Shown here: one piece after another, positions 12,506 to 30,833 of the stretch
Position numbering within the stretch: the first letter of the stretch is position 1
Layout of the letters: each line of letters starts with the position of its first letter
NCBI RefSeq assembly: GCF_900289195.1
Contig: NZ_OMOH01000004.1
Span: forward strand, 240,001 to 272,000
Source of the DNA: Propionibacterium ruminifibrarum
GTDB taxonomy: Bacteria; Actinomycetota; Actinomycetes; Propionibacteriales; Propionibacteriaceae
Length of the DNA: 32,000 nucleotides
Direction: 5' to 3'
Notes under the pieces: generated by a model
Told to the model about the DNA's origin: nothing
What the model saw: only the letters and a program-made list of their open reading frames with translations
Database searches by the model: none
Position numbers and translations under genes: made by a program

Positions 12506-13477
12506 TCAGTAGGCGAATGACCTGTCGACTGCGTCGAGGACGCGTTCGGCGTCAGGCAGGTAGTCGTGCTCGACCCGGGCCGGCGGGTAGCGGACGTCCC
12601 AGGCGGCGACACGCAGCACCGGCGCGTCCAGTGAGCCCCACATCTCCTCGTCCAGCCGGGCGGCGATCTCGGCGCCCGGCCCGAGCGTGCGGCGCGCCTC
12701 GTGGACGACGACGACCCTGCGGGTGCGGGCCGCGCTGGCCCGGATCACCGCCATGTCGAGTGGTGCCAGGGCGCGCAGGTCGATGACCTCCAGGTCGCGG
12801 CCCTCGCGGGCGGCCGCCTCGGCGGCGTCCAGGCAGGTTCGGACGGTCGGCCCGTAGGCCAGCAGGGTGGCGTCGCGGCCCGGCCGGACGGTTCTGGCGG
12901 CTGTCATCGGCAGGTCGGGGGCCGGGCCCACCTCGCCCTTGACGTAGTAGCGGGCCTTCGGTTCGAAGAGGATCACGGGGTCGGGGCACTCGATCGCCTG
13001 GCGCAGCAGCCAGTGGGCGTCGTGGGGCGATCCGCAGCTGAGCACGTGCAGGCCCGGGGTGTGCATGAAGTAGGCCTCGGGCGACTCGGAGTGGTGCTCG
13101 ACCGCGCCGATGTCGCCGCCGAAGGGGACCCGGATCACCATGGGCAGGCTGGTACGTCCGTGGGTGCGGGCACGGTAGCCGGCCACCTGGTTGACGATCT
13201 GGTCGAAGGCGGGGAAGACGAAGCCGTCGAACTGGATCTCGACGACCGGTCTGAATCCGCGCAGGGCGAGGCCGACGGCGGTGCCGACGATGCCGGACTC
13301 GGCCAGCGGCATGTCGCGGACGCGTCGCGGGCCGAAGGCGTCGTACAGGCCCTCGGTGATGCGGAAGACCCCGCCGAGGCGGCCGACGTCCTCGCCCATG
13401 ACGAGCACCCGGGAGTCCTCCGCCATCGCCGCGTGCAGGGCCGTGTTGAGGGCCTTCGCGAGGGTGAGCTCGGTCAT
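12506..13477 (-). CDS. 2-oxoacid dehydrogenase E1 component, beta subunit
   Basis: ATG 13477 follows the RBS gaaggaga and overlaps the E1alpha stop (ATGA). Transketolase-like pyrimidine-binding sequence: MGEDVGRLGGVFRIT..F.DMPLAESGIVG. The upper 300 codons of the 626-aa track ORF are an out-of-frame artefact. Confidence 0.9.
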   Translation of the reverse strand: MTELTLAKALNTALHAAMAEDSRVLVMGEDVGRLGGVFRITEGLYDAFGPRRVRDMPLAESGIVGTAVGLALRGFRPVVEIQFDGFVFPAFDQIVNQVAGYRARTHGRTSLPMVIRVPFGGDIGAVEHHSESPEAYFMHTPGLHVLSCGSPHDAHWLLRQAIECPDPVILFEPKARYYVKGEVGPAPDLPMTAARTVRPGRDATLLAYGPTVRTCLDAAEAAAREGRDLEVIDLRALAPLDMAVIRASAARTRRVVVVHEARRTLGPGAEIAARLDEEMWGSLDAPVLRVAAWDVRYPPARVEHDYLPDAERVLDAVDRSFAY

Positions 13478-14571
13478 GCCGCGTCTCCTTCGTCGGGTGC
13501 GGTGGACAGCCAGTCCAGGCAGTCGGCGCGTTCGGCGCGCAGGTAGTCGCCGGGCTCGCCGATGAGCTCGTCGAAGGCCCGCTCGATCGGGGTGTCGTCG
13601 AGTTCGCGGCAGGTCCGGCGCACGTCGGCGCCGAAGTCGTCGAGTTCGGCGTCCATGGCCCTCAGCCAGGCGTCGTCGACGAGTCCGGTGTCGAGCAGGT
13701 GCCGGCGGAGCCGTTCGATCGGGTCCTTGGCGGCCCAGTCGGCGCTGGTCTCGTCGCCGCGGTAGCGGCCGGGGTCGTCGCTGGTGGTGTGGGCGCCCAT
13801 GCGGTAGGTGTAGGCCTCGACGAGCACCGGGTGTCCGGCGCGGGCCCGGTCGAGCGCCCAGCCGATGACGGCGGCGCCGGCCAGCGGGTCGTTGCCGTCC
13901 ACGCGGATACCGGGGATGCCGAAGCCGTGGGCGCGCTGGTACAGCGGCACCCGGCTCTGGCTGGTGACGGGCTCGCTGATGGCCCACTGGTTGTTGACGC
14001 AGCAGAACACGACGGGCGCGTCCTGGGCGGCGGCGAAGACGAGTGCCTCGTTGACGTCGCCCTGGCTGGAGGCGCCATCGCCGTAGAGGGCCAGCGTGGC
14101 GGGCACGGGCCCGTCGCCGAAGCGTTCCAGGTCGACACCCATGGCATAGCCGACTGCGTGCAGCGGGTGCGAGCCGATGATGATCGAGAAGGGCGCGACG
14201 CGGGTGGCCTCGCTGTCCCAGCGCGACATGCCCGCCCCGCGCCACAGGGCGAGCAGATCGGCCACACCGACGCCCATGGCCAGGGCCAGGGCCTGCTCGC
14301 GGTAGGTGGCGAAGACCATGTCGGCCGGTTCGATCACGGCGGCGATACCCGCCTGGTAGCCCTCCTGGCCGCGCAGCGGCGGCCACAGGCCGAGCTCGCC
14401 GTGGCGTTGGAGCGCCGCGCCCTCGGTGTCGAGGCGACGGCCGAGCATCATGCGCCGCAGCATCGTCACCAGTTCGGTGTCGCCGCCCCGCCAGGCGAAC
14501 CGCGGGTCCTCGACACGTCGGCCGTCGGGCGTGAGCAGTTGCACCGGCCGGGTCGGGTCGTCTGCGCCCAT
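13474..14571 (-). CDS. 2-oxoacid dehydrogenase E1 component, alpha subunit (TPP-dependent)
   Basis: ATG 14571 follows the RBS gaggagagg; the track's TTG at 14592 is less likely. TPP-binding motif LYGDGASSQGDVNEALVFAA..VVFCCVNNQWAIS. Confidence 0.9.
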   Translation of the reverse strand: MGADDPTRPVQLLTPDGRRVEDPRFAWRGGDTELVTMLRRMMLGRRLDTEGAALQRHGELGLWPPLRGQEGYQAGIAAVIEPADMVFATYREQALALAMGVGVADLLALWRGAGMSRWDSEATRVAPFSIIIGSHPLHAVGYAMGVDLERFGDGPVPATLALYGDGASSQGDVNEALVFAAAQDAPVVFCCVNNQWAISEPVTSQSRVPLYQRAHGFGIPGIRVDGNDPLAGAAVIGWALDRARAGHPVLVEAYTYRMGAHTTSDDPGRYRGDETSADWAAKDPIERLRRHLLDTGLVDDAWLRAMDAELDDFGADVRRTCRELDDTPIERAFDELIGEPGDYLRAERADCLDWLSTAPDEGDAA

Positions 14572-14675
14572 GCTGGTCCTCTCCTCGAACAAAACCTACG
14601 TTTCAGTAACCTACCGAACCGTAAAGACCGAGTTCAAGGGCCGCCGAGGACGGCCCGCTGTGAGAACCCGATGAG

Positions 14676-14875
14676 AGGTCGACTCGACGCGCGGCGTGCG
14701 CAGGGCCTATGCTGCGAGCGAGTCGATCGCGCCCATGACGATGGGCGCCAGGGAACTCCGGTGCAAATCCGGGACTGGCGCGCAGCGGTGAAGGTGACGG
14801 GGCCGGCACAGAGAACCCACTGGGGAGACCCGGGAAGGGGCCGGCCTCGGATGACCCGAGTCCGAAGACCTAGAC
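14676..14875 (+). promoter_or_regulatory. Cobalamin (B12) riboswitch
   Basis: Conserved core read directly: GCCAGGGAACTCCGGTGCAAATCCGGGACTGGCGCGCAGCGGTGAAGG ... CCACTGGGGAGACCCGGGAAGG ... GACCCGAGTCCGAAGACCT (B12-box-like). This is near block-for-block similar to the E. coli btuB leader as I recall it. The outer boundaries (possible P1 AGGTC 14676-14680 / GACCT 14866-14870) are approximate. Confidence 0.85.
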
Positions 14876-14901
14876 CCCAACCCGGTCAATCACGTCTGGA
14901 A

Positions 14902-15165
14902 CGCCGCAAGAACCACACCTCAAGCATCCAACGCAAGACCCCAGAGGAAATCCTCAGCGTGGTCAGCACCTACATTATAGGTCGCATCTTTGACCTACGA
15001 TTTTAAGCAGCTTCCTAAACTCAATCAACAACCGATTTCGTTTCAAAACAGCCAGACAACAAGTTGGGTATGACAACCCTCGATCACAGCCATCGCAAAA
15101 ACCACAACGAAGGACCACACCGAGTCACCCTCGACAACTTCTCACCACGAGAAACCTTCCAGTAG
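14902..15165 (+). mobile_element. Decayed fragments resembling the C-terminal tail of rve-type (IS3/IS481-like) transposases
   Basis: Two short + strand reading-frame pieces, RKNHTSSIQRKTPEEIL (about 14902-14955) and RKNHNEGPHRVTLDNFSPRETFQ* (ending TAG 15163-15165), resemble the ..YNh.RPH.aL...tP.E.f tail of DDE integrase-core transposases. They share the 13-mer CGCAA(G/A)AACCACA. No intact ORF is present. Confidence 0.25.
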
Positions 15166-15261
15166 CCCTCGCTACCCCCTACCACTTGACATAACCTAGA
15201 GCTAGCTTGTGATATTACAGCCGGACAGAATTATGAGATGATCTGGGTCTTTCAGCTGCGA

Positions 15262-15609
15262 TCAGATTAGCCAGGCTGTCAGACCATGAACGATGAAGGC
15301 CACTCCTGCTCCACCTACCATGCCCCATTCTTTCTTTCCAGCACCGATGATAGCATCGACAATTTGAACAAGAGCGGCCGCAATAAGCAGCGCCTTGGTT
15401 GGCCACTGGCTAGCAAAGGAAATGAATGGTAATGCTCCAACAAGAATCCCAAGGGGAATTGCGCGAGTCGCGTACATGTTCGCGAAAAACCGTTCACCCT
15501 CAACCACGTTGCGAGAGCCACTGAATGCACTCGGCCTCGCGAGCGCAAGGCAGGCGGCGATTATCGTGGACAGAGCGATCACCGCGTTGATGATTTGCAA
15601 TATTAACAT
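15262..15609 (-). CDS. Small 4-TM membrane protein (DUF4267-like)
   Basis: ATG 15609 follows aggaa; the track start at 15663 would overlap the ligase by 47 nt. The 115-aa product has four hydrophobic segments and the patterns YATRAIPLGILVG and LIAAALVQIVDAIIG, reminiscent of DUF4267 proteins. Confidence 0.5.
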   Translation of the reverse strand: MLILQIINAVIALSTIIAACLALARPSAFSGSRNVVEGERFFANMYATRAIPLGILVGALPFISFASQWPTKALLIAAALVQIVDAIIGAGKKEWGMVGGAGVAFIVHGLTAWLI

Positions 15610-15616
15610 TGGATTC

Positions 15617-17194
15617 CTACTTTCCACAAAGGCTTGTAATGCTGATAATGTTTGTTTGAGCAAAATTCAAGGATCGGACTACAGGCAGATGTGCCAGCAA
15701 AGTCTTACGGTCGATCTTTCCATTAATAGGAAGACGTGGAATGTGGTCTACTAAGTAGATTTCATCACACGCATCAATGTATCGAAAATCAGCGCTACTT
15801 AAAGCAGGTTTATCAGCTGAGGCTACAGCTTCGCGAAGCACCACAAAAGCGACTACGGATAGAGGAGATGAGGTATCCGATGACTCCAGTATGACCCCAG
15901 CCTCCTTAACGCCAGGATGAGCTTCAAACTGACGTTCGAGTTCAGAGGGGGAAATCACAGTTCCATTACGGTATCCGATATCCACCAAACGATCAATAAC
16001 GAACAAATGATCATCAGCGTCAAGATAACCAATATCACCGGTCATAAACCATCCACCCTTTGCGAATGGCTCGAGGTCAGGTCGGTTCATGTAGCAATCC
16101 ATCAGTTGTGGACCGCGAATCTCAATTTCGCCAATCGAACCAACTGGCAAAAGTTCACGTGTAACGACATCGACGACGCGCGTGTCAGTATTAGGAAGGT
16201 TCATGCCAACGGACCCATGCACAGGATTGTCAGGATCATCGACATGAGAATGGTAAGCTGTTTCAGTCTGTCCGTATCCTTGGAAAACCTTGATCCCGAA
16301 GCGTTGCTCAAGCGATGCGCTGAGCTGGGGCGCGAGGGCCTTGGACCCACACGAAAAATACTTCACAGTCTCAAGCTGCTCAGCGTCGATACTAGGATCG
16401 TTTTCCAGCAATCCAAACAGGGTTGGGATTCCATAAAAATGTGTGACTTGGTATCGTTCCAAGCGATCAGCTATTGCGCCGCTCTCCCACGCAGGATCAA
16501 TCACAAAGGATGCACCAACAGAGATAGCCGCATTCAAATGCAGCGGGTTCATGATAGGCATATTGACGAAGATCACCGATTGACCCCACATGCGATGGGC
16601 CGATGCTACCATAAGTGCATTAGCGACAACGTTCTTGTGGGTGAGTCTGACACATTTTGAAGGACCGGTAGTACCACTGGTGAAAGCCAGCACGGCGGGG
16701 TCGTCAGAGGCGGGCGAAGTCCTGATTCTCGTCAACGATTGACCTAGTCGATCTGACAATTCATTCGCTACTGCGACAAGATTAAAAGTCGTAAATCGTT
16801 GAGCGAGATCGGAAATCTTCTCACGGGTCGTCTCGTCGAGAATCAAGAAATCAGGTTGAGTCTCCTCAACAGCACGGACCAGCTCCACAGCGGGCTTGGG
16901 CGGCATAAGACCAACCATGATTGCTCCGGCGCGAAGTACCGAATAGTAGGTAATGACACCATCAAGTGTCGGGGTCCATGTGAGCCCAATCCGCTTCCAT
17001 CGCTCCCCAGAGACGAGAGGGCGAATGGCTTGTGCTAGTTTCTCCACACGTGCATTGAGTTCCTTATATGTGAGCTCATACCCTCTGTCTATGACTGCAA
17101 TAGAGTTGGGCGAGCGTGCAGCCGTGGCGCGAAGTAGATCAGGAATTGCTATTTCAGGTATCTCGATCCTTTTTGTATGTTGAGTTTGGATCAT
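15617..17194 (-). CDS. AMP-dependent synthetase/ligase (acyl- or aryl-CoA/ACP ligase, ANL superfamily)
   Basis: AMP-binding motif AFTSGTTGPSKCVRLTHKN, with GYGQTET, GDIGYLDADDHLFVIDRLVD and the C-terminal INGKIDRKTL. The product is 525 aa. Confidence 0.9.
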   Translation of the reverse strand: MIQTQHTKRIEIPEIAIPDLLRATAARSPNSIAVIDRGYELTYKELNARVEKLAQAIRPLVSGERWKRIGLTWTPTLDGVITYYSVLRAGAIMVGLMPPKPAVELVRAVEETQPDFLILDETTREKISDLAQRFTTFNLVAVANELSDRLGQSLTRIRTSPASDDPAVLAFTSGTTGPSKCVRLTHKNVVANALMVASAHRMWGQSVIFVNMPIMNPLHLNAAISVGASFVIDPAWESGAIADRLERYQVTHFYGIPTLFGLLENDPSIDAEQLETVKYFSCGSKALAPQLSASLEQRFGIKVFQGYGQTETAYHSHVDDPDNPVHGSVGMNLPNTDTRVVDVVTRELLPVGSIGEIEIRGPQLMDCYMNRPDLEPFAKGGWFMTGDIGYLDADDHLFVIDRLVDIGYRNGTVISPSELERQFEAHPGVKEAGVILESSDTSSPLSVVAFVVLREAVASADKPALSSADFRYIDACDEIYLVDHIPRLPINGKIDRKTLLAHLPVVRSLNFAQTNIISITSLCGK

Positions 17195-17219
17195 GTCAGT
17201 TCTTCCGAAGTAGGTTTAA

Positions 17220-17642
17220 TCAGCCAGATAGTGATATGGTACGGAATTGAATAGTGGGTTCATGGCCCGCGCCGCAAACGATGATGTCGTCACAAATGAC
17301 GCTCGCAAGAATCGACGCGAATCCGTGGCGAAGAATCTGCATGATCAGGACACGTGACGATGCCCCGATCAAACCGTTATCAAGATAACGTATCAAGGGA
17401 GTGAACATAAAATGACGCGACTGCAATCGAATTGCTTTTCTCGCTACAAAATTATCCATCGCAACCGAGTGAATAGTGTCACGTCCTATGAGACGACTGT
17501 TGTTGGCAGTGTTGACGATTACTGCCTGTAGGGCGAATGTATTAGAATATTGGGCAATGTCACCCTCGTCGATGGCTTGAGTTTGACGAGCATATAGTTG
17601 ACTGATTTTGAAAAACGTGTTCGCTTGTTCACTGCCGTCCAT
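17220..17642 (-). CDS. NTF2-like / SnoaL_4-like protein (copy B)
   Basis: ATG 17642 overlaps the upstream paralogue by 14 nt. The N-terminal FFKISQLYARQTQAIDEGDIAQYSNTF matches the SnoaL_4/NTF2 pattern (..l..rY....D.gD......F). The product is 140 aa. Confidence 0.6.
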   Translation of the reverse strand: MDGSEQANTFFKISQLYARQTQAIDEGDIAQYSNTFALQAVIVNTANNSRLIGRDTIHSVAMDNFVARKAIRLQSRHFMFTPLIRYLDNGLIGASSRVLIMQILRHGFASILASVICDDIIVCGAGHEPTIQFRTISLSG

Positions 17643-18042
17643 CGAACGAGATCCTCCGAGCTTGCACGGTCCAGCGACCTTTATAAACGAGTTCGTCTCG
17701 CACCACGGTCGACAATAACCTTTGCTGAGTTTCAGAACCATCGAGCATGACAACAAGAACGTATGACGTCACGCTTGCTCTCCCGTCACTGGAAGCATTG
17801 ATATGCACCCCAGACTGATAATGTCGATTCTTCAAGCCTTGTTGAGATCGCATTTCATGAGCTTTTGATGCTACGTTGAAGATTTTCTCCGCTGTCGTCA
17901 CATCCGTCGTTGGAGACACAAACTTCGCATCATCGGCGAAATCGCCAGCCCAGCCTTGGATATCACCTTCGTCAATCCGAGCAAAATGTTCGCCATAAAA
18001 CTGGAGGATAGAAAAGAACTGATTACTTAATGGGTCATTCAT
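17629..18042 (-). CDS. NTF2-like / SnoaL_4-like protein (copy A), possible polyketide cyclase or accessory subunit
   Basis: ATG 18042 (MNDPLSNQFFSILQFYGEHFARIDEGDIQGWAGDFADDAKF). The product is 137 aa with an NTF2-like pattern. It is a distant paralogue of the next gene. Confidence 0.65.
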   Translation of the reverse strand: MNDPLSNQFFSILQFYGEHFARIDEGDIQGWAGDFADDAKFVSPTTDVTTAEKIFNVASKAHEMRSQQGLKNRHYQSGVHINASSDGRASVTSYVLVVMLDGSETQQRLLSTVVRDELVYKGRWTVQARRISFDGRQ

Positions 18043-18070
18043 CGACAAATAAACCTTCCGTGCGGCGCAA

Positions 18071-19006
18071 CTAAACGGTGCCAAGCCCACGATGCAGGCT
18101 AGTACGGTTCTTCCACTTCTCCATAACAGCCAATTCGGCTAAAACATCAAAATCATCAGCGCCGCGAAGATCCGCAAAAGCGCGAGCGATATTTGCAATG
18201 TTCCGCTCATTGTCGATTTTCACGTTAGTGCTTTCTCGCTCAAATTCTTCAGCGGTTTCCCAGACATTCGCACCTGTGTTGATCCCTTGTTCGGCATAGA
18301 CAAGAATCAGCCGTAGATAATCAAGACAGTCTTGGAGCATCTCAGCCCCTCCGACAGGTCCGTGACCAGGCACAACAGTTTGGGCATCTAATCTTTGAAG
18401 TATTTCAAGAGCCTCGATAGATCCGGTGACAGAGCCCATAAGAGCAAAGGGTGTAACGTTATTCCATGCAATATCACCAGTGAAGAGAACCCTCTCTGTA
18501 GGCAACCAAACGACAAGATCACTGGCCGTATGGGCATCTTTGAACTCAAGAAATTGGACATCACCCCACGCTGTCGAAATACTGTACCCATTCGAAACCA
18601 GCTTAGTGGGAGGAGTGACCTGAACATTACCGAAGTTGATACCGGGTTGCCTGCGCACGAGGTCGTCCCCGGCAAGCACAATCAACTCCGCCGTTAACTC
18701 CGTCCCAAGAATATTGCCGTCCGAGAATATAAAGTTCCCAAAAGTATGGTCACCGTGAAAATGAGTATTAACGACGTCAATCTGGACAGCGGCGAGGGTT
18801 TCCAATGCACGCCGCAACATGAGGTTTCTTGCCTCGATTGCGACAGTATCAACGAGGAGTACTGCGCCGGCTTGGTCGAGTTGGATGATGCCAACATTGT
18901 TCTGACACCAAGAGCCAGGGAGCTGTTGGTAAGCAAAAGCGTGTTTACTCAGCCGCACTACGGGGCTATTACTTGGGAGTGCCAACATCAGTTTACAGCT
19001 CCTCAT
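18071..19006 (-). CDS. Metallo-beta-lactamase-fold enzyme, candidate ActIV-like second-ring cyclase/thioesterase
   Basis: HxHxDH motif (THFHGDHTFGN), plus later His/Asp ligand candidates (KDAHTASD, TGD, PGHGP). The start overlaps the ARO/CYC stop (ATGA 19003-19006). Its position directly after ARO/CYC mirrors actVII-actIV. Confidence 0.8.
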   Translation of the reverse strand: MRSCKLMLALPSNSPVVRLSKHAFAYQQLPGSWCQNNVGIIQLDQAGAVLLVDTVAIEARNLMLRRALETLAAVQIDVVNTHFHGDHTFGNFIFSDGNILGTELTAELIVLAGDDLVRRQPGINFGNVQVTPPTKLVSNGYSISTAWGDVQFLEFKDAHTASDLVVWLPTERVLFTGDIAWNNVTPFALMGSVTGSIEALEILQRLDAQTVVPGHGPVGGAEMLQDCLDYLRLILVYAEQGINTGANVWETAEEFERESTNVKIDNERNIANIARAFADLRGADDFDVLAELAVMEKWKNRTSLHRGLGTV

Positions 19007-19896
19007 GCTGTCAAGCGCTTAATCGCAGCCAACGTCGAGAGACTACTCTGGCTCAAGCTGGCGCTGAGCCGAGTAACTAGATCCGGTAGCGACACGTTTC
19101 CTGCACGCTCAAGCAGAGCAAGGTGCCGGACGGTTACACGAGTACCGCCCTCAGCCTCTTCGAACGTCCAAGTTCCTGCATGTCCATACACACCAGCTGG
19201 GGTCTGGATCTGCTTGAAAGCAACCCATTGATCAGGACGCGCTACCCGCACAGATTCGACCGAATGGGCTTGTTCAGCGTTACGGCCGAGCTCCATTGAG
19301 AACCGTTGCTGATTGATTCCTTGCGAATGCACTGTGACTGCACCCACGTGGTCCAAGAAGTCAGGCCACATGTTAACTTCCCAAAGAGGCATAAACACCT
19401 CGTGTACATCGGCATCGATCCAGACCTCATCTTGGCTACGGACGATATGTTCTGACAGAGAACTTCCATATGTCTCAGCAAGGGTCTTAATGTTCGCTAG
19501 TTCGACGGTGCTGTTATAATCAGTAATGGTCTGCGCTGCCCGGAGTGCATCTTCGTCAGCTGCAGCGAGAGTATGACTTAGCGTCAATTCAGTGGACTTC
19601 TCATCGATATCTCTGATTGTCCATACTCCTGTCATCTCGGTCAGGGGTGGTGCTGGTTCTAGCTGCTGGAAGGTGACATTCCGCCGGTCAGCGCTGAACT
19701 GACGCGAGGAGCGCCAAGAAACGGTCGTGTCAAGTTCACCCTTACGCGCCCAAAGTCTAAGTTCTTCGTGTGCTTCATCTCTGCGATTTCGCTCGCAAGC
19801 AACTGTAGGAGTAAAGAAGATTGGCCAGTTCTCTGCGTCACTGATAATGCGTTGAACGACGTCAGCAGGGGCATTGATGGTGCTTGAATGTTTCAT
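19003..19896 (-). CDS. Di-domain SRPBCC aromatase/cyclase (ARO/CYC)
   Basis: The 297-aa product has two START/Bet v1-like halves: N-terminal STINAPADVVQRIISDAENWPIFFTPTV and a second half with VWIDADVHEVFMPLWEVNMWPDFLDHV. This is the typical size and architecture for ARO/CYCs of KR-containing type II PKSs. Confidence 0.8.
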   Translation of the reverse strand: MKHSSTINAPADVVQRIISDAENWPIFFTPTVACERNRRDEAHEELRLWARKGELDTTVSWRSSRQFSADRRNVTFQQLEPAPPLTEMTGVWTIRDIDEKSTELTLSHTLAAADEDALRAAQTITDYNSTVELANIKTLAETYGSSLSEHIVRSQDEVWIDADVHEVFMPLWEVNMWPDFLDHVGAVTVHSQGINQQRFSMELGRNAEQAHSVESVRVARPDQWVAFKQIQTPAGVYGHAGTWTFEEAEGGTRVTVRHLALLERAGNVSLPDLVTRLSASLSQSSLSTLAAIKRLTA

Positions 19897-19917
19897 GGGG
19901 GTTCCTATTCAATGTCT

Positions 19918-20691
19918 CTAAAATCGACCTAAACCACCGCACACGTTCAGTGCTTGACCCGTGATAGCTGCTGCTTCTGGGCCAGCAAGGTAATTGACAA
20001 GCGAGGCAACCTCTGAGGGGGTGGAGTACCGACCGATGGGGATCTTGTTTTCGAACTCGCTGCGAACCTCTTCAATAGTGCGTCCAAAAATTTCAGCATG
20101 GCATCTGACAACTGTATCAGCCATAGGAGTCTCGACGTATCCAGGGCACACAGCGTTGACAGTAATGTTTCGCTTCGCATATTCAAGAGCAAGCGATCTA
20201 GTAATTCCGATCACTGCATGCTTCGAGGCATTGTAAGGTGCTGACAAGGGAATCCCTTGCTTCCCCGCAGTCGAGGCGATGTTGATGATGCGCCCATGCT
20301 CATTGTCCAGGATCCCTCCTTCGCGGAGAACAGCGCGACTCATGAAGAAAACAGAATCACAATTTGTTGTCATGATATGACGCCAAATATCCGTGGAGAG
20401 CTCATGGAAAGGCCCCCCACCTGAGGTTCCAGCATTGTTAACAAGGCAGTTAATCTTGCCACATCGAGCAACAATATCCTTGATGTACTGGTCGACATCT
20501 TTCTCGTTCGCCACATCACACACCGAACCAGTAACAGTCAACCCTTCATTTTGCCACCGTCTTTCATGCAGATTCACAGATTCTGCGCAACGCCCGCAGA
20601 ATTCAACATGCATGCCTGCTTGTGCAAGAGTCTCGACTATTGCTTCGCCAATGCCCGAAGTGCCACCACTTACCACTGCCACTTTCGTCAT
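19918..20691 (-). CDS. SDR-family polyketide ketoreductase (ActIII/FabG-like)
   Basis: VSGGTSGIGEAI (TGxxxGxG), NNAG and the S...YNASK catalytic motif. ATG 20691 lies 9 nt after aaggag and is preferred over GTG 20700. Confidence 0.9.
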   Translation of the reverse strand: MTKVAVVSGGTSGIGEAIVETLAQAGMHVEFCGRCAESVNLHERRWQNEGLTVTGSVCDVANEKDVDQYIKDIVARCGKINCLVNNAGTSGGGPFHELSTDIWRHIMTTNCDSVFFMSRAVLREGGILDNEHGRIINIASTAGKQGIPLSAPYNASKHAVIGITRSLALEYAKRNITVNAVCPGYVETPMADTVVRCHAEIFGRTIEEVRSEFENKIPIGRYSTPSEVASLVNYLAGPEAAAITGQALNVCGGLGRF

Positions 20692-20710
20692 ATACTTCAC
20701 CTCCTTGGAA

Positions 20711-20962
20711 CTAGCTAGTCAACTGGTCATTAGCGATAGAAATGAGTTCACGTGGTGTGATTAACGCGTAATTTCGCCCTTCGGGAAACTTGAAGTCATG
20801 ATTCTGTTCAAGCTTAGCTTTGATGGCAATGACGTTCAGCGAATCAAAATTCAATTTTTCAAAAGACATGTCCAGGATTGATTCATCGATCGTGAGCTCC
20901 TCATCTTCTCCGACAACGGTTTGAGTGATCTTGATCAGTTCATCGACAGTTATAGTCGTCAT
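20711..20962 (-). CDS. Acyl carrier protein
   Basis: The 83-aa product starts at ATG 20962, after the RBS aaaggaga. The phosphopantetheine attachment motif is LNFDSLNVI. Confidence 0.85.
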   Translation of the reverse strand: MTTITVDELIKITQTVVGEDEELTIDESILDMSFEKLNFDSLNVIAIKAKLEQNHDFKFPEGRNYALITPRELISIANDQLTS

Positions 20963-20991
20963 GAGATGTCTCCTTTTGATTGCAGCTACTG

Positions 20992-22188
20992 TCAACCATT
21001 GAGTCGCAAAAGTGCTGCGGAACGGTATCCTCCAGTGCCAGTCGAAAGCACTAAAGCGGTGTCTTTCTGAATTGGTCGGCCTTCGCCGTACACAAGGTTC
21101 AAATGTTCATCTGGATCCTGTCCACCGAGGCGAATAGCGAGTGGTGGGATCCATTGATTACGCAATGTTAGAGCCGCAAGAGCGACATCAACCGCTGAAG
21201 CGCCAGCAAATAGGCGGCCAAATCCGGTCTTGGGGGCCGTCGTCGGAGGCTGCTTGTCGCCGAAGATCTTAACTAAAGTCTCGCGCTCTCGAGTGTCCAC
21301 TCCGGGAACTCCCACTGCGTCGCTATAGACAACGCCAATATCAAAGGGCGTTACCCCCGATTCAGTGAACAGTCGTTCCACGACATCACGAAGAACATTT
21401 CCCGACTGCCCGCTCTGAAATCCTCGAGCGGCTCCGATCAACTCAATATCACGCTGTGCGGGCGGTGTCATACGTTCGCTCTGAAGCATCAACAATGCTC
21501 CCCCAGCCCCGGGCACGTAACCGATTGACTCTGCGCTGTAGGGAGCAAAACCCTCGGCAGCAGTTTCAGGTGCTAGTGTACTTGTGCCTGAATACATAGA
21601 TGCGATGCCAAACGGACTTCGAGTACCATCAATGGCACCAGTAATCATGAAGTCTGTTCCTGATAAAATCTCGTAGTTAGCGAGACTTAGGGCGTCAATT
21701 CCACTACAGGCCTCGGTCGCGACGGTCCCGCTCGGCCCCTTCAATTTATGGCGAACCGAGATCTGACCGGTATTGACTGAATAGAACCACGCAAATGATT
21801 GATAAGGGCTAACCGCTCCAGGCCCATTTTCACTGAGATTTGTCAGTTCCCTTTGAGCAAAAGATAAGCCACCGTAATTATTCCCCAGCTGGACACCGAT
21901 CTCGTCTCTGTGGTCCAAGACCTCACTATTATCACCGCTCAAAAGCTGATCTGACAGGGCGAGGGCGGCTTGCGTGATTGGATCCGTCTGTATCTTGATG
22001 CGTTCGGTCAGCCCGACGGCCATACGCTCTGTATCGAGATCGCCAAAGAGTATTTGCCTCCCCTCGCAGTCCTCAAGTGTTGAGAATGTTGTACGACCTT
22101 TGACGACTGCGTCCCATACTTCCTCAGTGGACGTTCCTTGGGATGTAGCGATGGCGATTTGTGTGATAAACGTTCTCCCGTTTCTCAT
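20992..22188 (-). CDS. Ketosynthase beta / chain-length factor (CLF)
   Basis: KS fold without catalytic residues. TEACSGIDA aligns to KS-alpha SAGCTSGLDA, placing Ala160 at the Cys/Gln position. The two KS His positions are absent (SDAVGVPG, GFGRLFAGAS). The start overlaps the KS-alpha stop (ATGA). Confidence 0.9.
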   Translation of the reverse strand: MRNGRTFITQIAIATSQGTSTEEVWDAVVKGRTTFSTLEDCEGRQILFGDLDTERMAVGLTERIKIQTDPITQAALALSDQLLSGDNSEVLDHRDEIGVQLGNNYGGLSFAQRELTNLSENGPGAVSPYQSFAWFYSVNTGQISVRHKLKGPSGTVATEACSGIDALSLANYEILSGTDFMITGAIDGTRSPFGIASMYSGTSTLAPETAAEGFAPYSAESIGYVPGAGGALLMLQSERMTPPAQRDIELIGAARGFQSGQSGNVLRDVVERLFTESGVTPFDIGVVYSDAVGVPGVDTRERETLVKIFGDKQPPTTAPKTGFGRLFAGASAVDVALAALTLRNQWIPPLAIRLGGQDPDEHLNLVYGEGRPIQKDTALVLSTGTGGYRSAALLRLNG

Positions 22189-23510
22189 ATTATCTCGTCT
22201 CTACGCTTAGGATTTTCAATCACTATCGCTGATTGAAATCCACCGAATCCACTTGCAGTTGACAGTGCACCGTTAATGACTGCCCGTCTTGCAGTATTAG
22301 GAACATAATCTAGATCACACCGTTCGTCGGGAATCTCATAATTAATCGTCGGAGGCACTAAGTTCTCTGCTATAGCTAATACACAAGCAATAATCTCAAT
22401 TGCACCAACAGCGCCGAGGGAGTGGCCAATGGAAGATTTAATTGAACTGATTGGAACATGCCGAGAGTGCTCGCCGAGAGCTTTTTTGAGTGCCTCAGTT
22501 TCGTGCACGTCGTTCTGCTGAGTGCTCGAACCATGAGCGTTGACGTAGTCAATCTGCTCCGGCTTGATTCCTGCCTTCAGTAGCGCTTTCGAGATAGCAT
22601 CAGCAAGTTCCGCACCTTCATTGTCTAGCCCAGTCATGTGGTAGCCGTTTGTAGTCCGCGCAAACCCGGTAATCTCGGCATATACGTGTGCACCGCGAGC
22701 GCGCGCATGTTCAAGATCCTCAAGCACTAGCGTCGCAGCACCTTCGGCAAGCACGAAACCATTTCGTTTAGCGTCAAATGGACGCGAAGCCTCCTCTGGT
22801 TTCTTGTTCGAAGGACTGGTAGCTTTGATCGCGTCAAAACTTGCGACTGTGATTGGCAACAAGGGAGCGTCCGTGCCGCCAGCAATGACGATGTGACTCT
22901 CTCCACGCTGGATCATCGCCGCGCCTTGACCGACCGCATCTAGCCCGGAGGTGCATCCAGCCGACACTATGGCGACTGGTCCGTTCACATGGTAACGGTC
23001 GGCAAGGCACGCTCCCAACGTGCTTGGCAGGAGCCCTTCAAAGAGCGCCTCGTTCTTGTCTCCAAGCGGACACCGCCAATACTTTCCCCCATCCGTGAAA
23101 TGATCATAAAGTTCAACCATACGCTGGGAAGCACCAACCGCTGACCCGTACGAGATTCCGATTCGGTCAGAAGTGCTGCATGTCTCATACCCGCTGTCAA
23201 AAGCGTCACCGAGCGCTTCATCAGTCGCTGCGACCGCCAAGCGTATACTGCGGTCAACCGCACTGAGGTCTTCGCCATCACCAAATTCCTGGATAACGAT
23301 ACCGTCATCTTCAATATTACACTCACCGGCAATTTGTGAGCGGAACGAACTAGGGTCAAATTGACTGATTCGACGCACTGCAGAACCTCCGGAAGTGATC
23401 AATGACCAGAACGCATCGCGCCCCGGTTCGCCAGGAGCGATGACACCGATCCCGGTGATGGCAACTCTTCTGACCTCAACCTGATCATTGTTTCCGAAAC
23501 CTTCCGACAT
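22185..23510 (-). CDS. Type II polyketide ketosynthase alpha
   Basis: Active-site IVSAGCTSGLDAV, with YVNAHGSST and KSSIGHSLGAVGA (Cys-His-His triad). ATG 23510 follows gagggga. The product is 441 aa. Confidence 0.95.
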   Translation of the reverse strand: MSEGFGNNDQVEVRRVAITGIGVIAPGEPGRDAFWSLITSGGSAVRRISQFDPSSFRSQIAGECNIEDDGIVIQEFGDGEDLSAVDRSIRLAVAATDEALGDAFDSGYETCSTSDRIGISYGSAVGASQRMVELYDHFTDGGKYWRCPLGDKNEALFEGLLPSTLGACLADRYHVNGPVAIVSAGCTSGLDAVGQGAAMIQRGESHIVIAGGTDAPLLPITVASFDAIKATSPSNKKPEEASRPFDAKRNGFVLAEGAATLVLEDLEHARARGAHVYAEITGFARTTNGYHMTGLDNEGAELADAISKALLKAGIKPEQIDYVNAHGSSTQQNDVHETEALKKALGEHSRHVPISSIKSSIGHSLGAVGAIEIIACVLAIAENLVPPTINYEIPDERCDLDYVPNTARRAVINGALSTASGFGGFQSAIVIENPKRRDEII

Positions 23511-23533
23511 TGTGTTTCCCCTCAAAATAATTC

Positions 23534-24235
23534 TTAATCCAGCTGAAGCTTAATTGGACACTGTACCGGAACGCTCGTTTGCGCCAGCCCTCGGGTAAAT
23601 GTATGTATTGCCCATTGCGCTCGTTCGACTGGCGTCGCTATCATTGCCATATGGGAAAGTCGACTTAGGTGTGGAAAATTCTCAGGATCCAATCCAGATA
23701 AAACGTTCTCAGCCTCGTAAAGATGCTCTTTGCCTAAGGTTGCCTCAAACGCAGAGATCTCGTTTGCTTCCGTGATGACGATAGAATTGAGTACGTCGAC
23801 TGCGAGCAGCGAGGTCATTTCATCATGACTTGAATCGAGGAGAATTTTAAGATATCTCTCTGAGATACGAAGCAACGCTTCAGCGCTTGGAACTCGCCCA
23901 ACCATTCCTGCGCTCAGCCCTGGGTACCTAACGAGCGATTCCACTGTCCGCATTGCCAAAGCTTCAAGTTGAGCATCCCAAGCCATATCACCCTCTGCGT
24001 TATGGATCTCAACTTCTGACAAAACAGTATTAATGAGTGTGTCCACAAGAGACTGTCTGTTCTTGAAATATACGTATAATGCAGCAGGACCAGTCTCAAG
24101 TTCTTGGGCAAGCGAGCGCATTGTCAGCGCATTAAAACCTCGCTCAGTGATCAGTTTCAACGCACTATCCACGATGAGCTGTCTCGTCAGGGGAGCTTTA
24201 CTGGCGCCTCCCCGTCGACCTTGCGGTTCATTCAT
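23534..24235 (-). CDS. TetR-family transcriptional regulator
   Basis: N-terminal HTH LIVDSALKLITERGFNALTMRSLAQELETGPAALYVYFKNRQSL. ATG 24235 follows the RBS gaggagcgaagg. It lies only 23 nt upstream of, and co-directional with, KS-alpha. Confidence 0.85.
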   Translation of the reverse strand: MNEPQGRRGGASKAPLTRQLIVDSALKLITERGFNALTMRSLAQELETGPAALYVYFKNRQSLVDTLINTVLSEVEIHNAEGDMAWDAQLEALAMRTVESLVRYPGLSAGMVGRVPSAEALLRISERYLKILLDSSHDEMTSLLAVDVLNSIVITEANEISAFEATLGKEHLYEAENVLSGLDPENFPHLSRLSHMAMIATPVERAQWAIHTFTRGLAQTSVPVQCPIKLQLD

Positions 24236-24251
24236 CCTTCGCTCCTCAGGT

Positions 24252-24283
24252 GTAACGAACACTGTTCGTTACGAACGATGTTC
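24252..24283 (-). promoter_or_regulatory. Tandem palindromic operator-like sites in the tetR/PKS operon leader
   Basis: GTAACGAACA-C-TGTTCGTTAC is a perfect 21-bp palindrome (24252-24272). ACGAACGATGTTC follows, giving two ACGAAC-N3-GTTC units (24257-24267 and 24273-24283) with centres 16 bp apart. The sites lie 17-48 nt upstream of the tetR ATG. A weak candidate minus-strand promoter sits just upstream (TAGTCA-17 nt-TAGGGT, about 24284-24312). Confidence 0.5.
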
Positions 24284-24399
24284 ACCCTAGCACCCCGGAC
24301 AGATGTTGACTAGAGCCTGATACTGGTAGCTGGACAGGATCGCTGAGTCCCCGACGCGGTCGTAGTACTTGTCGGCGTCGAATCTGGCTAGCCGCTACC

Positions 24400-24766
24400 A
24401 GCATCTACCCCCTTGACCTTGGCCCTGTACGTCGCGGTGGTAGCTCCGGCTCGAAGTCGGTGTACGTGATCGGAAACACGCCGCTGATATGGTCTCCGAA
24501 CTTGATCCAAGCCCTAGCTTGGTCCCAGCGCACGGAGCCAGGCAACCCTGCCACAGGTGTTGAGCCCTGGACACCGAAGCTGTCTCCCCGATCTGTCGAG
24601 CGGCTACGCGCAAAGGCCCCTAAGAGGGATGGTGGTGACGACCGACGTGCTACACATCCAGACTACGGCCGCCGAACAGGGTCTCGCACAGCACGACGGC
24701 TACGTGCTGACAACTAACCAACCAGCTTGGACTGTACAAGATTGTGAAACACCTGTCCTAGCCTGA
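24400..24766 (+). mobile_element. Degenerate DDE transposase remnant (IS4/ISAs1-like), frameshifted and truncated
   Basis: Frame pieces LRGMVVTTDVLHIQTTAAEQGLAQHDGYVLTTNQPAW (24626-24730) resemble the ..L.G.VVT.DALHTQ....yl....g.hYll.VK.NQP.L core of ISAs1-type transposases. Upstream pieces in other frames (PLDLGPVRRG.., NLIQALAWSQ) fit the preceding part. Multiple frame changes occur and there is no start. G+C is intermediate. Confidence 0.4.
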
Positions 24767-24769
24767 TAA

Positions 24770-25153
24770 TCCCGCCTCTGGATGGATGCCCTGGCGGCCG
24801 GCCCCGAGACGGCCGCGGCGCTCGGTGTGCGGGTCGGGGCCATGCGCGTCGGCCTGTTCGTCGGGCTGGGCGTGCTCATCGGCTGCCTGGTGGCGGTCAG
24901 CGGCGGCATCGGCTTCGTCGGTCTCATCGTCCCGCACGCGGCGCGCATGATGGTCGGCTCACTGCACCGGCGCATGCTGCCGATCGCCGCGCTGACCGGC
25001 GCGCTGTTCCTGCTGTGGGTCGACGTCATCTCGCGGGTCGCCGTCCGCCCGCAGGAGATCCCCATCGGCGTGGTCACCGGCGTGATCGGCGCCCCCGTCT
25101 TCCTGGTGCTCATGGGGCGGCGCCGGTACGCGTTCGGGGGTCGTGACGCATGA
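24770..25153 (+). pseudogene. 3'-terminal third of a FecCD/BtuC-family ABC permease gene (5' two-thirds missing)
   Basis: The frame opens right after TAA 24767-24769. LDALAAGPETAAALGVRVGAMR..GGIGFVGLIVPHAARMMVG...IPIGVVTGVIGAPVFLVLM is the C-terminal part of FecCD permeases, which are normally about 330-350 aa; only about 127 codons are present. The stop overlaps the ATPase start (ATGA). Confidence 0.75.
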
Positions 25154-25977
25154 AGACCAGGACCAGGAAACCGGCACGCCCCAGCCGTACCGCGCAGATT
25201 CCCGAGATCCGGCTCGAGGACGTCGCCGCCCAGGTCGAGGGCCACGTCGTCGTCCGCGGCGTCAGCCTCACGATCGGGCCGGGCACGAAACTGGCGCTGG
25301 TCGGCACGAACGGCGCCGGCAAGTCGACGCTGCTGCGCACCATCGCCGGCATCGCGGCCCCGGCGGCCGGCCGGGTGCTGCTCGACGGGCAGCCGCTGAG
25401 GGACCTCGCGCCGCGGGAACGGGCCCGCATCATCGCCTTCGTCTCCCAGGAGGAGACCCCGCCGGACGACCTGCGCCTGGGCGAGATGGTCGCCCTGGGA
25501 CGCATCCCGTACCGCAGCCCGTGGTCGATGACCACGCACGGCGAGCTGCACATCGTCCGCGAGGCGCTGTCCGCGCTCGGACTCGGCGACCGGCTGGAGA
25601 CGCCCTGCACGAACCTGTCCGGCGGGGAGCGGCGGCGCGCCATGATCGCCCGCGGCCTGGCCCAGCGCTGCCCGGTGCTCATGCTCGACGAACCGACGAA
25701 CCACCTCGACATCGCCTGGCAGCTGCGGCTGCTCGACCTGCTCGGCGCCCAGCCGACGACGGTCATCGCGGCCATCCACGACATCGACACCGTGCTGCGC
25801 CACTTCGACCTGGTGGCCGTCCTCCACGACGGACGCCTCCAGGCCTTCGGCAGGCCCACCGAGGTGCTCGACACCGGCCTCATGGGCGAGGCCTTCGCCG
25901 TCGAGGCCATGCAGATATCCCACCCGGAAACCCACCAGAGTCACCTGCTCATCAGCGGGGGAAAGGACCACCGATGA
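25150..25977 (+). CDS. ABC transporter ATP-binding protein (FepC/BtuD-like, iron-siderophore/cobalamin class)
   Basis: Walker A GTNGAGKSTLL, signature LSGGERRRAMIARGL and Walker B VLMLDEPTNHLD. The product is 275 aa. Confidence 0.9.
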   Translation: MKTRTRKPARPSRTAQIPEIRLEDVAAQVEGHVVVRGVSLTIGPGTKLALVGTNGAGKSTLLRTIAGIAAPAAGRVLLDGQPLRDLAPRERARIIAFVSQEETPPDDLRLGEMVALGRIPYRSPWSMTTHGELHIVREALSALGLGDRLETPCTNLSGGERRRAMIARGLAQRCPVLMLDEPTNHLDIAWQLRLLDLLGAQPTTVIAAIHDIDTVLRHFDLVAVLHDGRLQAFGRPTEVLDTGLMGEAFAVEAMQISHPETHQSHLLISGGKDHR

Positions 25978-27059
25978 AGATCTCCCGGCTCGCACCCGCC
26001 GGACTGCTCACCCTGGCGCTCGTCGCCGCCGGATGCGGCTCGGGCACGGACTCCGGCGCCGACGCGAACTCCGACTCCTCGTCCGCCGGCACCGTCCAGC
26101 TCACCAACTGCGGCGAGACCAAGCAGTACCCGAGCCCGACCACCCGGCTGTTCGTCAACGACGGCAACATCATCTCGATCGCCCTGGCCGCGGGGGCTGC
26201 CGACGACATCGTCGCCGTGTCGAGCATGCAGCGCGACCGGGACGTGCTGGCCCTCAAGTACGGCGCCGAGACGGTCGACGGCCTCAACCAGGTCGCCGAG
26301 AAGTACCCGACGATGGAGAACATCGTCGCCGCCTCGCCGCAGGTGGTCTTCGCCGGCTGGGGCTACGGCTTCTCCGAGGAGAAGAACCTCACCCCGGACG
26401 GGCTGAGCCAGCAGGGCATCGAGAGCTATCTGCTGTCGGAGACCTGCCGGCAGGACGACGGCAACCGCGGCACGATGGACCCCTGGGACGCCCTGACCAC
26501 CGACATCGCCAATGTGGGCGAGATGACCGGCCACGAGGAGACCGCCGAGTCGGTCGTGGCAGACATCAACGACCGGCGCCAGGCGCTGGAGCAGGCCCCG
26601 CAGGCCGACACCAGGCCCACCGCTTTCCTGTTCGACTCCAGCTCGGACACCATCTTCTCGTCCGGGTCCTTCGGCGCCCCGCAGGCCATGATGGACTCGG
26701 CCGGTGTCACCAACGCCCTCGCCGACGTCGAGGACACCTGGACCTCGGTGAGCTGGGAGCGTCTGGCCACCGCCGACCCCGACATCATCTTCTTCGTCGA
26801 CTACCCGGGCCAGAGCTACGACGAGAAGATCGAAGCGCTGCGGTCGAACGACGCGACGAAGGACCTGGCGGCGGTCAAGGAGGAGCGCTTCGTCAACCTG
26901 CCCTACGCCATGTGGACCTCGGGCCCGCTCAACATCGACGGCGCCGAATACCTGCGCGTCGCGCTCGAGCACTACGGCCTGCAGCCGGCCTCGGGCGTCC
27001 AGACCCGGCTGGACCTGTCCGAACTGGCCGACCTGCCCGGCAACGAGTGGATGAAGTAG
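25974..27059 (+). CDS. Lipoprotein substrate-binding protein of the FecB/BtuF-type ABC importer
   Basis: ATG 25974 overlaps the ATPase stop (ATGA). The signal peptide carries the lipobox LVAAGC. The 361-aa product sits in a permease-ATPase-SBP operon context. The longer 638-aa track ORF is an out-of-frame extension. Confidence 0.8.
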   Translation: MKISRLAPAGLLTLALVAAGCGSGTDSGADANSDSSSAGTVQLTNCGETKQYPSPTTRLFVNDGNIISIALAAGAADDIVAVSSMQRDRDVLALKYGAETVDGLNQVAEKYPTMENIVAASPQVVFAGWGYGFSEEKNLTPDGLSQQGIESYLLSETCRQDDGNRGTMDPWDALTTDIANVGEMTGHEETAESVVADINDRRQALEQAPQADTRPTAFLFDSSSDTIFSSGSFGAPQAMMDSAGVTNALADVEDTWTSVSWERLATADPDIIFFVDYPGQSYDEKIEALRSNDATKDLAAVKEERFVNLPYAMWTSGPLNIDGAEYLRVALEHYGLQPASGVQTRLDLSELADLPGNEWMK

Positions 27060-27086
27060 ACGCTCGGCGTGGGACGGGCGCCCGCA

Positions 27087-27145
27087 GCCATGCCCGGCAG
27101 GGCATGGCCAGCCGGCCCCCGGCGGGTGCAACCGCAGGGGGCCGG
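27087..27145. terminator. Two adjacent GC-rich hairpins between convergent genes
   Basis: GCCATGCCC-ggca-GGGCATGGC (27087-27108) and CCGGCCCCC...GGGGGCCGG (27112-27145, with an inner GCGG/CCGC extension). No clear T-tract follows. Confidence 0.4.
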
Positions 27146-27172
27146 TCGGGCTGACGCGAGGAGTCCCGCCCC

Positions 27173-28504: not shown

Positions 28505-28766
28505 GCGGGTCCTTTCGACAGAGGGGCGGCGGGCGGCCTGCCCTTTCGCACGAAAGGATCTCATACGCGCGGGCGGCATGGCGCACTGGCGGCCGGGCGC
28601 GGACGGCCGCCCGGTTCTGGTTGGGCCGCGCTCATAAAATAACCAGGGTTTTCCGGACATTCCCAGCCGACGCCGGGTCCGGGCGCACCTCGGGCCGCGG
28701 CGCACGAGACGATCGCCCCTGCGCCCGGCATCGGATCATCGGATTCACTTCAGACACGGAGACCGA

Positions 28767-30635: not shown

Positions 30636-30803
30636 GCAGGTCGGGCACGGCGCCGGTAGGGTCGAGGAGCGCACTTCCAGCGGGCCGACAGTGCTGCACG
30701 GCCACGGCGCCAGTTCGCGCAGGGTGTGCCCTTGGCAGGGAAGGACCCGCACCGGGACGCACCCGGGTCGAATGGAGGGCTCTCACCCAAGGCCGCCACG
30801 ACA

Positions 30804-30829: not shown

Positions 30830-30833
30830 AGGG

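Follow-up and report, generated by a model that had tools for sequence, protein, structure and literature searches.

A low-GC type II polyketide synthase island at a truncated cobalamin riboswitch and importer operon in Propionibacterium ruminifibrarum

ATP-binding cassette (ABC) importers of the BtuFCD type that are controlled by a cobalamin riboswitch have a simple layout, in which the riboswitch is followed by the genes for a permease, an ATPase and a substrate-binding protein (SBP). The actinorhodin-type polyketide synthases (PKS) of type II are built on a minimal set of KS-alpha, KS-beta or chain-length factor (CLF), and acyl carrier protein (ACP), and a glutamine of the CLF is thought to drive decarboxylative priming. 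These two systems meet in the DNA analyzed here, a stretch of 32,000 nt from the rumen bacterium P. ruminifibrarum (RefSeq assembly GCF_900289195.1, contig NZ_OMOH01000004.1, positions 240,001 to 272,000 of the forward strand), which as a whole is called the window below. In it, an island with a type II PKS cassette lies between the truncated aptamer of a cobalamin riboswitch and the 3′-remnant of a FecCD/BtuC-type permease gene. We consider it likely, with a probability of roughly 85%, that a single insertion-deletion of a foreign PKS cassette into a B12-controlled importer operon destroyed that operon, and that most carriers have later lost the PKS.

The insertion site and its empty counterparts

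A metagenomic contig of the same species (L002; ENA ERZ28567010), found by exact-sequence look-up of the window's ATPase, carries the intact order of E1 dehydrogenase, full cobalamin riboswitch, FecCD permease of 376 amino acids (aa), ATPase and SBP. By blastn, positions 1-2327 of L002 correspond to window 12546-14871 with 95.9% identity and positions 3147-7434 to window 24778-29065 with 99.0% identity; at the place of window 14872-24777 (9,906 bp), L002 has 819 bp. P. australiense NML98A072 (L012), which is ~91-92% identical at the nucleotide level, has the same intact order, and its alignment to the window breaks at exactly the same two window positions. The named relatives, L012 among them, were gathered by a genome scan with the SBP, and in 8 of the 12 relatives scanned a full-length riboswitch (model 1-189, 74-91 bits) lies directly upstream of a full-length permease, ATPase and SBP. 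The layout of a riboswitch-controlled BtuFCD-type importer is found exactly in the intact relatives L002, L012, L013, L015-L019 and L027, and the E1 dehydrogenase neighbor is common to L002 and to the close relatives L012, L013 and L027.

As the intact layout is present in the relatives, including the 8 of 12, we take the empty state to be ancestral and the state of the window to be derived. The 819 bp of L002 and L012 have homologues in other genera, which practically rules out that the two derive from an island-bearing ancestor. A first-pass annotation of the window had proposed an ancestral B12-regulated operon of riboswitch, permease, ATPase and SBP, and this operon is indeed intact in the empty-site relatives L002, L012, L013 and L027; comparison of synteny from the bkd operon to the btu-like operon gave island-free, intact loci in L002 and L012. 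The GC content drops from ~70% to ~50% between ~14.9 and 24.7 kb and then goes back up, and the stretch shows the features of a genomic island both in this atypical GC content (50% vs 70%) and in being missing from the same-species L002 and from P. australiense L012. With the 819 bp, the riboswitch lost the final 4 B12-box positions, the 3′-strand of P1 and its expression platform, and the permease gene lost 252 codons. The same annotation had described an insertion with a deletion into the permease gene, and the comparison bears this out, with 9,906 bp replacing 819 bp and the 5′ two-thirds of the permease gone. The comparison shows that the ancestor had an operon of riboswitch, FecCD/BtuC-type permease, ATPase and lipoprotein SBP, divergent from the bkd E1 dehydrogenase gene, and that in one P. 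ruminifibrarum lineage a single insertion-with-deletion swapped 819 bp for 9,906 bp of foreign DNA.

Six other carrier contigs (L037-L042) were reached through a TetR variant of the same 90%-identity cluster. They are found in the NCBI metagenome-assembled genome GCA_040307615.1, Logan SRR7110455, JGI 3300021326, 3300023712 and 3300023707, and ENA ERZ27247021. All six, which come from other samples, span the left and the right junction with sequences that are base-identical to the window. An assembly chimera, or contamination by low-GC DNA, could be suspected from the abrupt GC step of ~20 points, and the Logan assembly that reproduces the window (L001, L033) probably derives from the same read set. 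Such an artefact is refuted by the six contigs, in which different samples and assemblers give identical bases across both junctions, and the identical KS-alpha occurs together with the host ATPase in JGI 3300019373; we give it practically no chance. The left junction and a 25-mer of the right end were not found when JGI metagenome contigs were scanned for exact patterns, in a set that evidently does not include L039-L041, which contain the junction string.

Remnants of the riboswitch and the importer

An Rfam scan of the whole window gave one match only, to RF00174 at 14750-14871 on the + strand, with 67.1 bits (gathering score 31.5; E = 1e-14). The match is local and covers model positions 45-169 of 189, whereas the homologue in L002 is matched globally, over model positions 1-189 with 89.3 bits. 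The window is near-identical to L002 as far as GAGTCCGAAGACCT, after which come AGAC and unrelated island sequence, and the alignment of the two breaks after GAAGACCT. The left junction is located at position 169 of 189 of the Rfam model, inside the B12 box. The box has the consensus rAGYCMGgAgaCCkGCcd (Vitreschak et al., 2003, quoted from PMC5644110), against which it is cut past position 14 of 18 and its last 4 positions are lost. The 3′-strand of P1, which reads GTCGGCTCACCTG in L002 and L012, is replaced by island sequence beyond 14871, and what is left is not a complete aptamer closed by P1. The 64-nt leader of L002 is deleted as well, and with it the whole expression platform; the next DNA is the island, whose genes are on the opposite strand, and neither a platform nor a regulated gene follows immediately downstream.

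A riboswitch on the + strand, ending near 14875 and orphaned from its importer, had been described from the window before. The cmscan match, well above the gathering score, supports the riboswitch, and the island does separate it from the importer genes, but the aptamer is truncated at 14871 and is itself damaged, being cut within the B12 box and deprived of both the platform and the 3′-strand of P1. As these parts are missing, no B12 control of anything downstream is expected. The remnant aptamer would be unable to close P1 or to act as a switch, and B12 regulation has presumably been lost. The locus offers natural strains with a riboswitch cut inside its ligand-binding core.

In the intact relatives (L002 2328-2392; L012, L013 and L027) a hairpin (GGCGTCT...AGACGCC) is conserved in the leader 3′ of P1; after it comes CCAGATGAAAG, and there is no U-tract. 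This conserved hairpin without a U-tract suggests translational rather than terminator-based control, and the permease start codon in these relatives is possibly upstream of the annotated GTG.

On the other side of the island, native homology restarts at 24778 (CTGGATGG...), and the 124 of 376 permease codons that are retained begin at ...WMDALAAGPETAAALGV. The open reading frame (ORF) 24770-25150 matches Pfam FecCD (PF01032) with E = 1.7e-35 at profile positions 198-310 of 311 only; it belongs to the family and does not contain a full-length membrane domain. At the aa level the remnant equals the C-terminus of the 376-aa permease of L002 (100% identity); the two coding sequences are separated by 8 synonymous and 0 non-synonymous differences. 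The first-pass annotation had seen here a permease fragment of ~127 codons at 24770-25153, from which ~200 codons were absent. Alignment with full-length permeases confirms that it is a truncated FecCD protein, but its native part begins at 24778 and has 124 codons, and the missing part is larger than had been estimated: 252 codons of the 376-aa L002 call, or ~232 of the 356-aa calls in its protein cluster. The possibility that the remnant constitutes a small protein family of its own was rejected, as all other members listed for the 90%-identity cluster of the 123-aa ORF have a length of 356 aa.

The downstream ATPase and SBP genes are intact and translationally coupled, as had been claimed: both have Pfam matches, and a 4-nt overlap of start and stop codons (ATGA) is found at the permease/ATPase and at the ATPase/SBP boundary. 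The ATPase is aa-identical to that of L002 (4 synonymous, 0 non-synonymous differences) and the SBP differs from its L002 counterpart by six aa. Since about two-thirds of the permease are gone, the importer would be without a membrane channel and hence non-functional, and the ATPase and SBP genes are probably leftovers that have not yet decayed. Annotation of the type strain should accordingly not take the Rfam match, together with the 123-aa "FecCD" ORF, ATPase and SBP, for a working system of B12 uptake. The full permease scores 224.8 bits against the NCBIfam BtuC model, for which the cut-off is 334, and its best NCBIfam match, a putative F420-0 ABC permease model, is also under the cut-off. 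With the permease below the BtuC cut-off, it is the riboswitch that points to B12 as the substrate of the importer.

Transcription of the ATPase and SBP genes may nevertheless continue. At the island edge, a promoter-like site (TTGTGA, 17-nt spacer, GATAAT; 24742-24770, + strand) points into the remnant operon; it is a 9-of-12 consensus match only, with 1 site found vs 0.2 expected from shuffles. From the riboswitch remnant to the island genes (14500-15700), no terminator-like site was found on the + strand. Transcription that starts at the old riboswitch promoter could thus plausibly continue, in the antisense direction, into the 3′-end of the PKS operon (15262-17194).

Alleles and age of the island

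All six of the other carriers are without window 16123-23549: their alignments continue to 16122 and then from 23550. This deletion rewrites the C-terminus of the TetR protein (243 aa vs 233 aa), and the TetR variant of the decayed allele is present on 16 contigs, which is more than the full island. There are three alleles in the species, namely the intact operon, the full island, and the island from which the PKS genes were later deleted. The island is a segregating polymorphism, and most carriers sampled are already without the PKS genes; the type strain appears to be among few sources of a complete copy of the cassette. Since all three alleles occur in a single species, the order in which gain and loss took place, and their pace, can be followed directly.

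The retained parts of the island differ by 0.16-0.33% among carriers, whereas the host flanks differ by 1.5-6.5% on the left and by 2.4-3.2% on the right. The low diversity of the island compared with the diverged flanks, together with the identical junctions, argues for one recent insertion. That the insertion is fairly recent had been proposed earlier, and it agrees with the aa-identity of the ATPase to that of L002, with the 8 synonymous and 0 non-synonymous differences of the permease remnant and with the island diversity. Differences in the flanks start ~70 bp to the right of the island, and on the left they are sparse over the first ~170 bp and then dense, which indicates that the island later moved between strains by homologous recombination, or that the flanks were overwritten up to the island edges.

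The leftovers could instead be in use and kept by selection, either because the ATPase and SBP work with a permease encoded elsewhere or because the promoter and partial aptamer modulate the PKS operon by antisense. It speaks for this that every carrier has intact ORFs for the ATPase, the SBP and the 123-aa remnant, which are still open in the diverged L037 lineage, that no terminator-like site is found on the + strand between the riboswitch remnant and the island genes, and that the promoter-like site at 24742-24770 faces the remnant operon. However, an island diversity of 0.16-0.33% means little time for decay, so that intact ORFs would be seen in any case; in the aptamer, neither the 3′-strand of P1 nor the end of the B12 box is left; and deletion of the PKS genes in most carriers runs against selection for a PKS-related regulatory role. 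The remnant in the L037 lineage has moreover 3 derived aa changes and a ratio of non-synonymous to synonymous polymorphism (pN/pS) of 0.27 vs a baseline of 0.07. We therefore regard continued use as very unlikely and favor undecayed leftovers of a recently broken operon. For the ATPase of L037 the pN/pS is 0.58 vs 0.33, but part of this signal seems to stem from an imported allele of P. australiense type and not from new mutations.

The cassette, its arrival and its relation to known systems

The low-GC stretch contains eleven genes, all on the - strand, in the order TetR, KS-alpha, KS-beta, ACP, SDR ketoreductase (KR), two-domain SRPBCC cyclase, metallo-beta-lactamase-fold (MBL) protein, SnoaL, SnoaL, AMP-ligase and a hydrophobic ORF (Table 1). 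The proteins of the window are NCBI SPF68352-SPF68363 of P. ruminifibrarum.

Table 1. Features of the window, with positions counted from its first letter.
Feature	Position	Strand	Evidence and remarks
Branched-chain 2-oxoacid dehydrogenase E1 alpha	13474-14571	-	Pfam E1_dh E = 2e-65; NCBI SPF68352.1; native left neighbor, divergent from riboswitch
Truncated cobalamin riboswitch aptamer	14707-14871	+	Model positions 1-169; P2 to P6 and first 14 of 18 B12-box positions kept
Inserted island	14872-24777		9,906 bp, ~50% GC; alignment breaks (blastn, L002 and L012): 14871 and 24778
Left terminal 162 bp of island	14872-15033		No similarity to any fetched locus; L048 homology stops at 15034
Cassette non-coding tail	15034-15261		L048 2289-2512 aligns to window 15261-15034, 72% identity
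115-aa hydrophobic ORF, last cassette gene	15262-15609	-	Kept at cassette end in L004-L011; homologues 70-85% identity
AMP-dependent ligase (acyl/malonyl-CoA-synthetase-like)	15617-17194	-	Pfam AMP-binding E = 7.6e-64
Segment deleted in decayed allele	16123-23549		7,427 bp; KS-alpha through most of ligase, and last TetR codons
SnoaL-like protein 2	17220-17756	-	SnoaL_4 E = 1.8e-8; longest ORF; relatives (L005-L011) called 139 aa
SnoaL-like protein 1	17629-18090	-	SnoaL_4 E = 3.3e-11; relatives called 136 aa
MBL-fold protein, candidate polyketide cyclase or hydrolase	18071-19006	-	Lactamase_B E = 1.2e-16
Two-domain SRPBCC aromatase/cyclase	19003-19896	-	Polyketide_cyc and Polyketide_cyc2, two matched stretches each
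SDR ketoreductase	19918-20700	-	adh_short E = 6.6e-58; KR
ACP	20711-20995	-	PP-binding E = 2.7e-5; DSL serine motif
KS-beta / CLF	20992-22188	-	Best PDB match actinorhodin KS2, 1TQY_B, E = 2.2e-61
KS-alpha, type II PKS	22185-23510	-	Best PDB match actinorhodin KS1, 1TQY_A, E = 4.2e-123; GCTSGLD; SPF68359.1
TetR-family regulator, first cassette gene	23534-24235	-	TetR_N, TetR_C_1; same position in all related cassettes
Non-coding region upstream of cassette	24236-24550		L045 and L046 align up to 24550; L034 to ~24469
Palindrome TAACGAAC-ACT-GTTCGTTA	24253-24271		Perfect 8-bp arms, 18 nt upstream of TetR start codon
Right terminal 227 bp of island	24551-24777		No significant similarity to L034/L045 IS fragments or other flanks
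FecCD/BtuC-type permease 3′-remnant	24778-25153	+	124 codons and stop; in-frame ATG 24782, in-frame TAA 24767
ABC ATPase, intact	25150-25977	+	Pfam ABC_tran; start codon overlaps permease stop
Lipoprotein SBP, intact	25974-27059	+	Peripla_BP_2 E = 7.1e-25; lipobox LVAAGC
IS, insertion sequence.

The KS-alpha is a 446-aa ORF in the window and was recorded as a gene call of 441 aa. As is typical of type II PKS, a KS-alpha with an active-site Cys is coupled to a CLF, the two genes overlapping by 4 nt (22185-22188), and a discrete ACP, a KR and an aromatase/cyclase are present. Another type II feature, replacement of the catalytic Cys by Gln in the CLF, is not seen: residues ~159-163 read EACSG, vs EQAGG in the actinorhodin CLF (1TQY_B), with Ala at the Gln position and Cys adjacent to it. 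EACSG is kept in all five cassette versions examined (window, L004, L010, L011 and L034). The ligase has malonyl-CoA synthetase and 4-coumarate-CoA ligase as its best PDB matches, and the 115-aa ORF gave no match to Pfam or NCBIfam. Judged by its genes, the island is a complete TetR-regulated type II PKS cassette, and an aromatic polyketide is the product predicted from the genes alone. The palindrome upstream of the TetR gene, a candidate operator for TetR, is also conserved in L034 and L011.

Among the matches listed for KS-alpha, the nearest are metagenomic proteins with 72-88% identity and a Brachybacterium squillarum protein with 73%; the remaining ones listed, mostly from Streptomyces, have 51-56% identity, which places the KS-alpha of the window in a separate clade. 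The same order of eleven genes occurs in unrelated contexts in L004-L011, including B. squillarum (AGBX01000001.1, L010), and cassettes of the same type are also found in L034 and L043-L055. The L004-L011 cassettes, including that of B. squillarum, have 65-81% nucleotide identity to the window's, and their flanking genes differ from those of the window, i.e., the insertion sites are different. Including shared non-coding DNA, the common cassette corresponds to window 15034-24550. We see a compact type II PKS cassette with an unusual CLF moving among non-streptomycete Actinobacteria (Propionibacterium, Brachybacterium).

The GC content of the orthologous cassettes (window 15235-24297 compared) is ~50% in the window, ~52% in L011, ~59% in L004-L009 and ~64% in B. 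squillarum, with flanks of 65-75%. In B. squillarum (L010 18208-19041) and in L049-L055 (~465-1190) a gene for 4′-phosphopantetheinyl transferase (PPTase) is located 3′ of the 115-aa ORF. The copy in the window is without it (14872-15261), and its ACP would depend on a host PPTase; tblastn found no PPTase remnant at the left end of the island.

Transposase fragments are found next to related cassettes: an IS481-like one in L034, an IS256-type Transposase_mut in L045, rve domains of IS30-like type in B. squillarum L010 and of IS3 type in L049, and HTH_Tnp_1 with DDE_Tnp_4 in L004-L007. This proximity to IS fragments in other genomes makes it probable that IS elements accompany the cassette when it passes from host to host. 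At the island of P. ruminifibrarum itself the hallmarks of mobility are missing, as no tRNA was found in the window and no integrase or transposase domain in the island. A search for direct and inverted repeats at the island boundaries gave only short matches at chance level, with no target duplication and no terminal inverted repeats. Because the window has none of these features, we favor capture of a linear fragment by an illegitimate, end-joining-type event as the probable mechanism of insertion.

As the main alternative, the island could have come as a composite transposon or another IS-bracketed unit, with the IS copies and the 819 bp lost later by IS-mediated deletion that left IS remnants behind. 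Related cassettes lie beside transposase fragments in nearly every other context, and the terminal 162 and 227 bp of the island are outside the shared cassette. These end segments, however, have no Pfam match in six frames at E up to 10, and the right end has no match in a blastn search of plasmids. Comparison of the end segments with the flanks of all related cassettes by blastn and tblastn gave nothing significant, and Smith-Waterman alignment to the IS fragments of L034, L045, L004, L010 and L011 gave nothing above shuffles. The IS debris that had been reported to accompany the island is therefore not supported by the sequence, reasonable as the guess was. As terminal inverted repeats and a target-site duplication were not found either, we regard an IS-bracketed arrival as possible but somewhat unlikely and keep to the end-joining-type capture.

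It could also be that the neighborhood of bkd and btu is a recurrent landing site for the cassette in rumen Propionibacterium, or that the cassette shuttles with captured flanks by homology-assisted recombination. In L034 (Logan ERR11413715) the cassette is 86% identical to the window's at the nucleotide level (83-86% if L048 is included). On the TetR side, L034 1-716 contains a truncated IS481-like transposase gene, after which come 84 nt from the 5′-region of a Propionibacterium E1 dehydrogenase gene; they have 92.9% identity to L027 and 88% to window 14462-14545, ~410 bp from the left junction. The low-diversity haplotype around the island, which extends into host DNA for only ~170 bp on the left side and ~70 bp on the right, also fits homologous recombination up to the island edges. 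On the other hand, the host sequence amounts to just 84 nt at one end of a single short contig, where a k-mer chimera is possible, and the other cassette end, in L048, runs off the contig before any host junction. L048, which is from the same run (ERR11413715), has its own, different internal deletion of the cassette, equivalent to window 16279-19554. All P. ruminifibrarum carriers share a single junction pair, which argues for one event in the species, and a recurrent landing site or shuttling cassette appears unlikely to us compared with a single insertion-deletion.

Several points weigh against our interpretation. The end-joining mechanism is an inference, and scoring of junction microhomology needs the donor sequence. 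The left 162 bp and the right 227 bp of the island could be non-coding IS remnants. The join to E1 sequence in L034 hints at a history more complicated than one random insertion; it could be a second independent insertion nearby, the product of rearrangement or amplification, or an artefact of a short contig. In every carrier the ORFs of the ATPase and the SBP are intact and free of stop codons, and their pN/pS is 0.19-0.58, which fits a recent event and is also compatible with continued use. Finally, both the loss of importer function and the antisense transcription are deduced rather than observed.

Two further observations concern the host DNA around the island. Two tracts, 13046-13795 and 14437-14700, are hypervariable between strains, with ~10% divergence or more where neighboring DNA has <=1%; they cover part of the E1 alpha gene and the intergenic promoter region between E1 and the riboswitch, and their pattern suggests a recombination mosaic. 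A 2.2-kb segment at window 28576-30833, with a 622-aa ORF (28767-30635) called Na_H_antiport_1 in L037, is missing from the syntenic P. australiense L012 and present in P. ruminifibrarum relatives.

A search of the literature on P. ruminifibrarum, on type II PKS in Propionibacterium and on the run and sample accessions found no publication describing the locus or the cluster. Like the actinorhodin-type minimal PKS (1TQY), the cassette has a KS-alpha, CLF, ACP, SDR ketoreductase, di-domain SRPBCC cyclase and MBL-fold protein. It differs from the actinorhodin type in the Ala-Cys of its CLF, where actinorhodin has Gln-Ala, and in an extra malonyl-CoA-synthetase-like ligase and the 115-aa membrane ORF, as well as in its 50% GC and the lack of a PPTase in this copy. 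Of an intact BtuFCD-type operon, the window retains the aptamer from model position 1 to 169, the final 124 codons of the permease gene and the genes for ATPase and SBP; the aptamer is cut in the B12 box, and the 3′-strand of P1, the platform and 252 of 376 permease codons are gone. In kind, the event is an ordinary horizontal insertion-deletion that breaks a resident gene, and our findings leave the general understanding of such systems unchanged. With generic genomic islands and insertion-deletion scars the locus shares the atypical GC, presence and absence within a species, the replacement of resident DNA and later internal decay, and it differs from generic islands in having no integrase, tRNA target, direct repeats or transposase. 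A breakpoint inside a riboswitch aptamer is, set against generic islands, unusual as a documented example, though not in principle.

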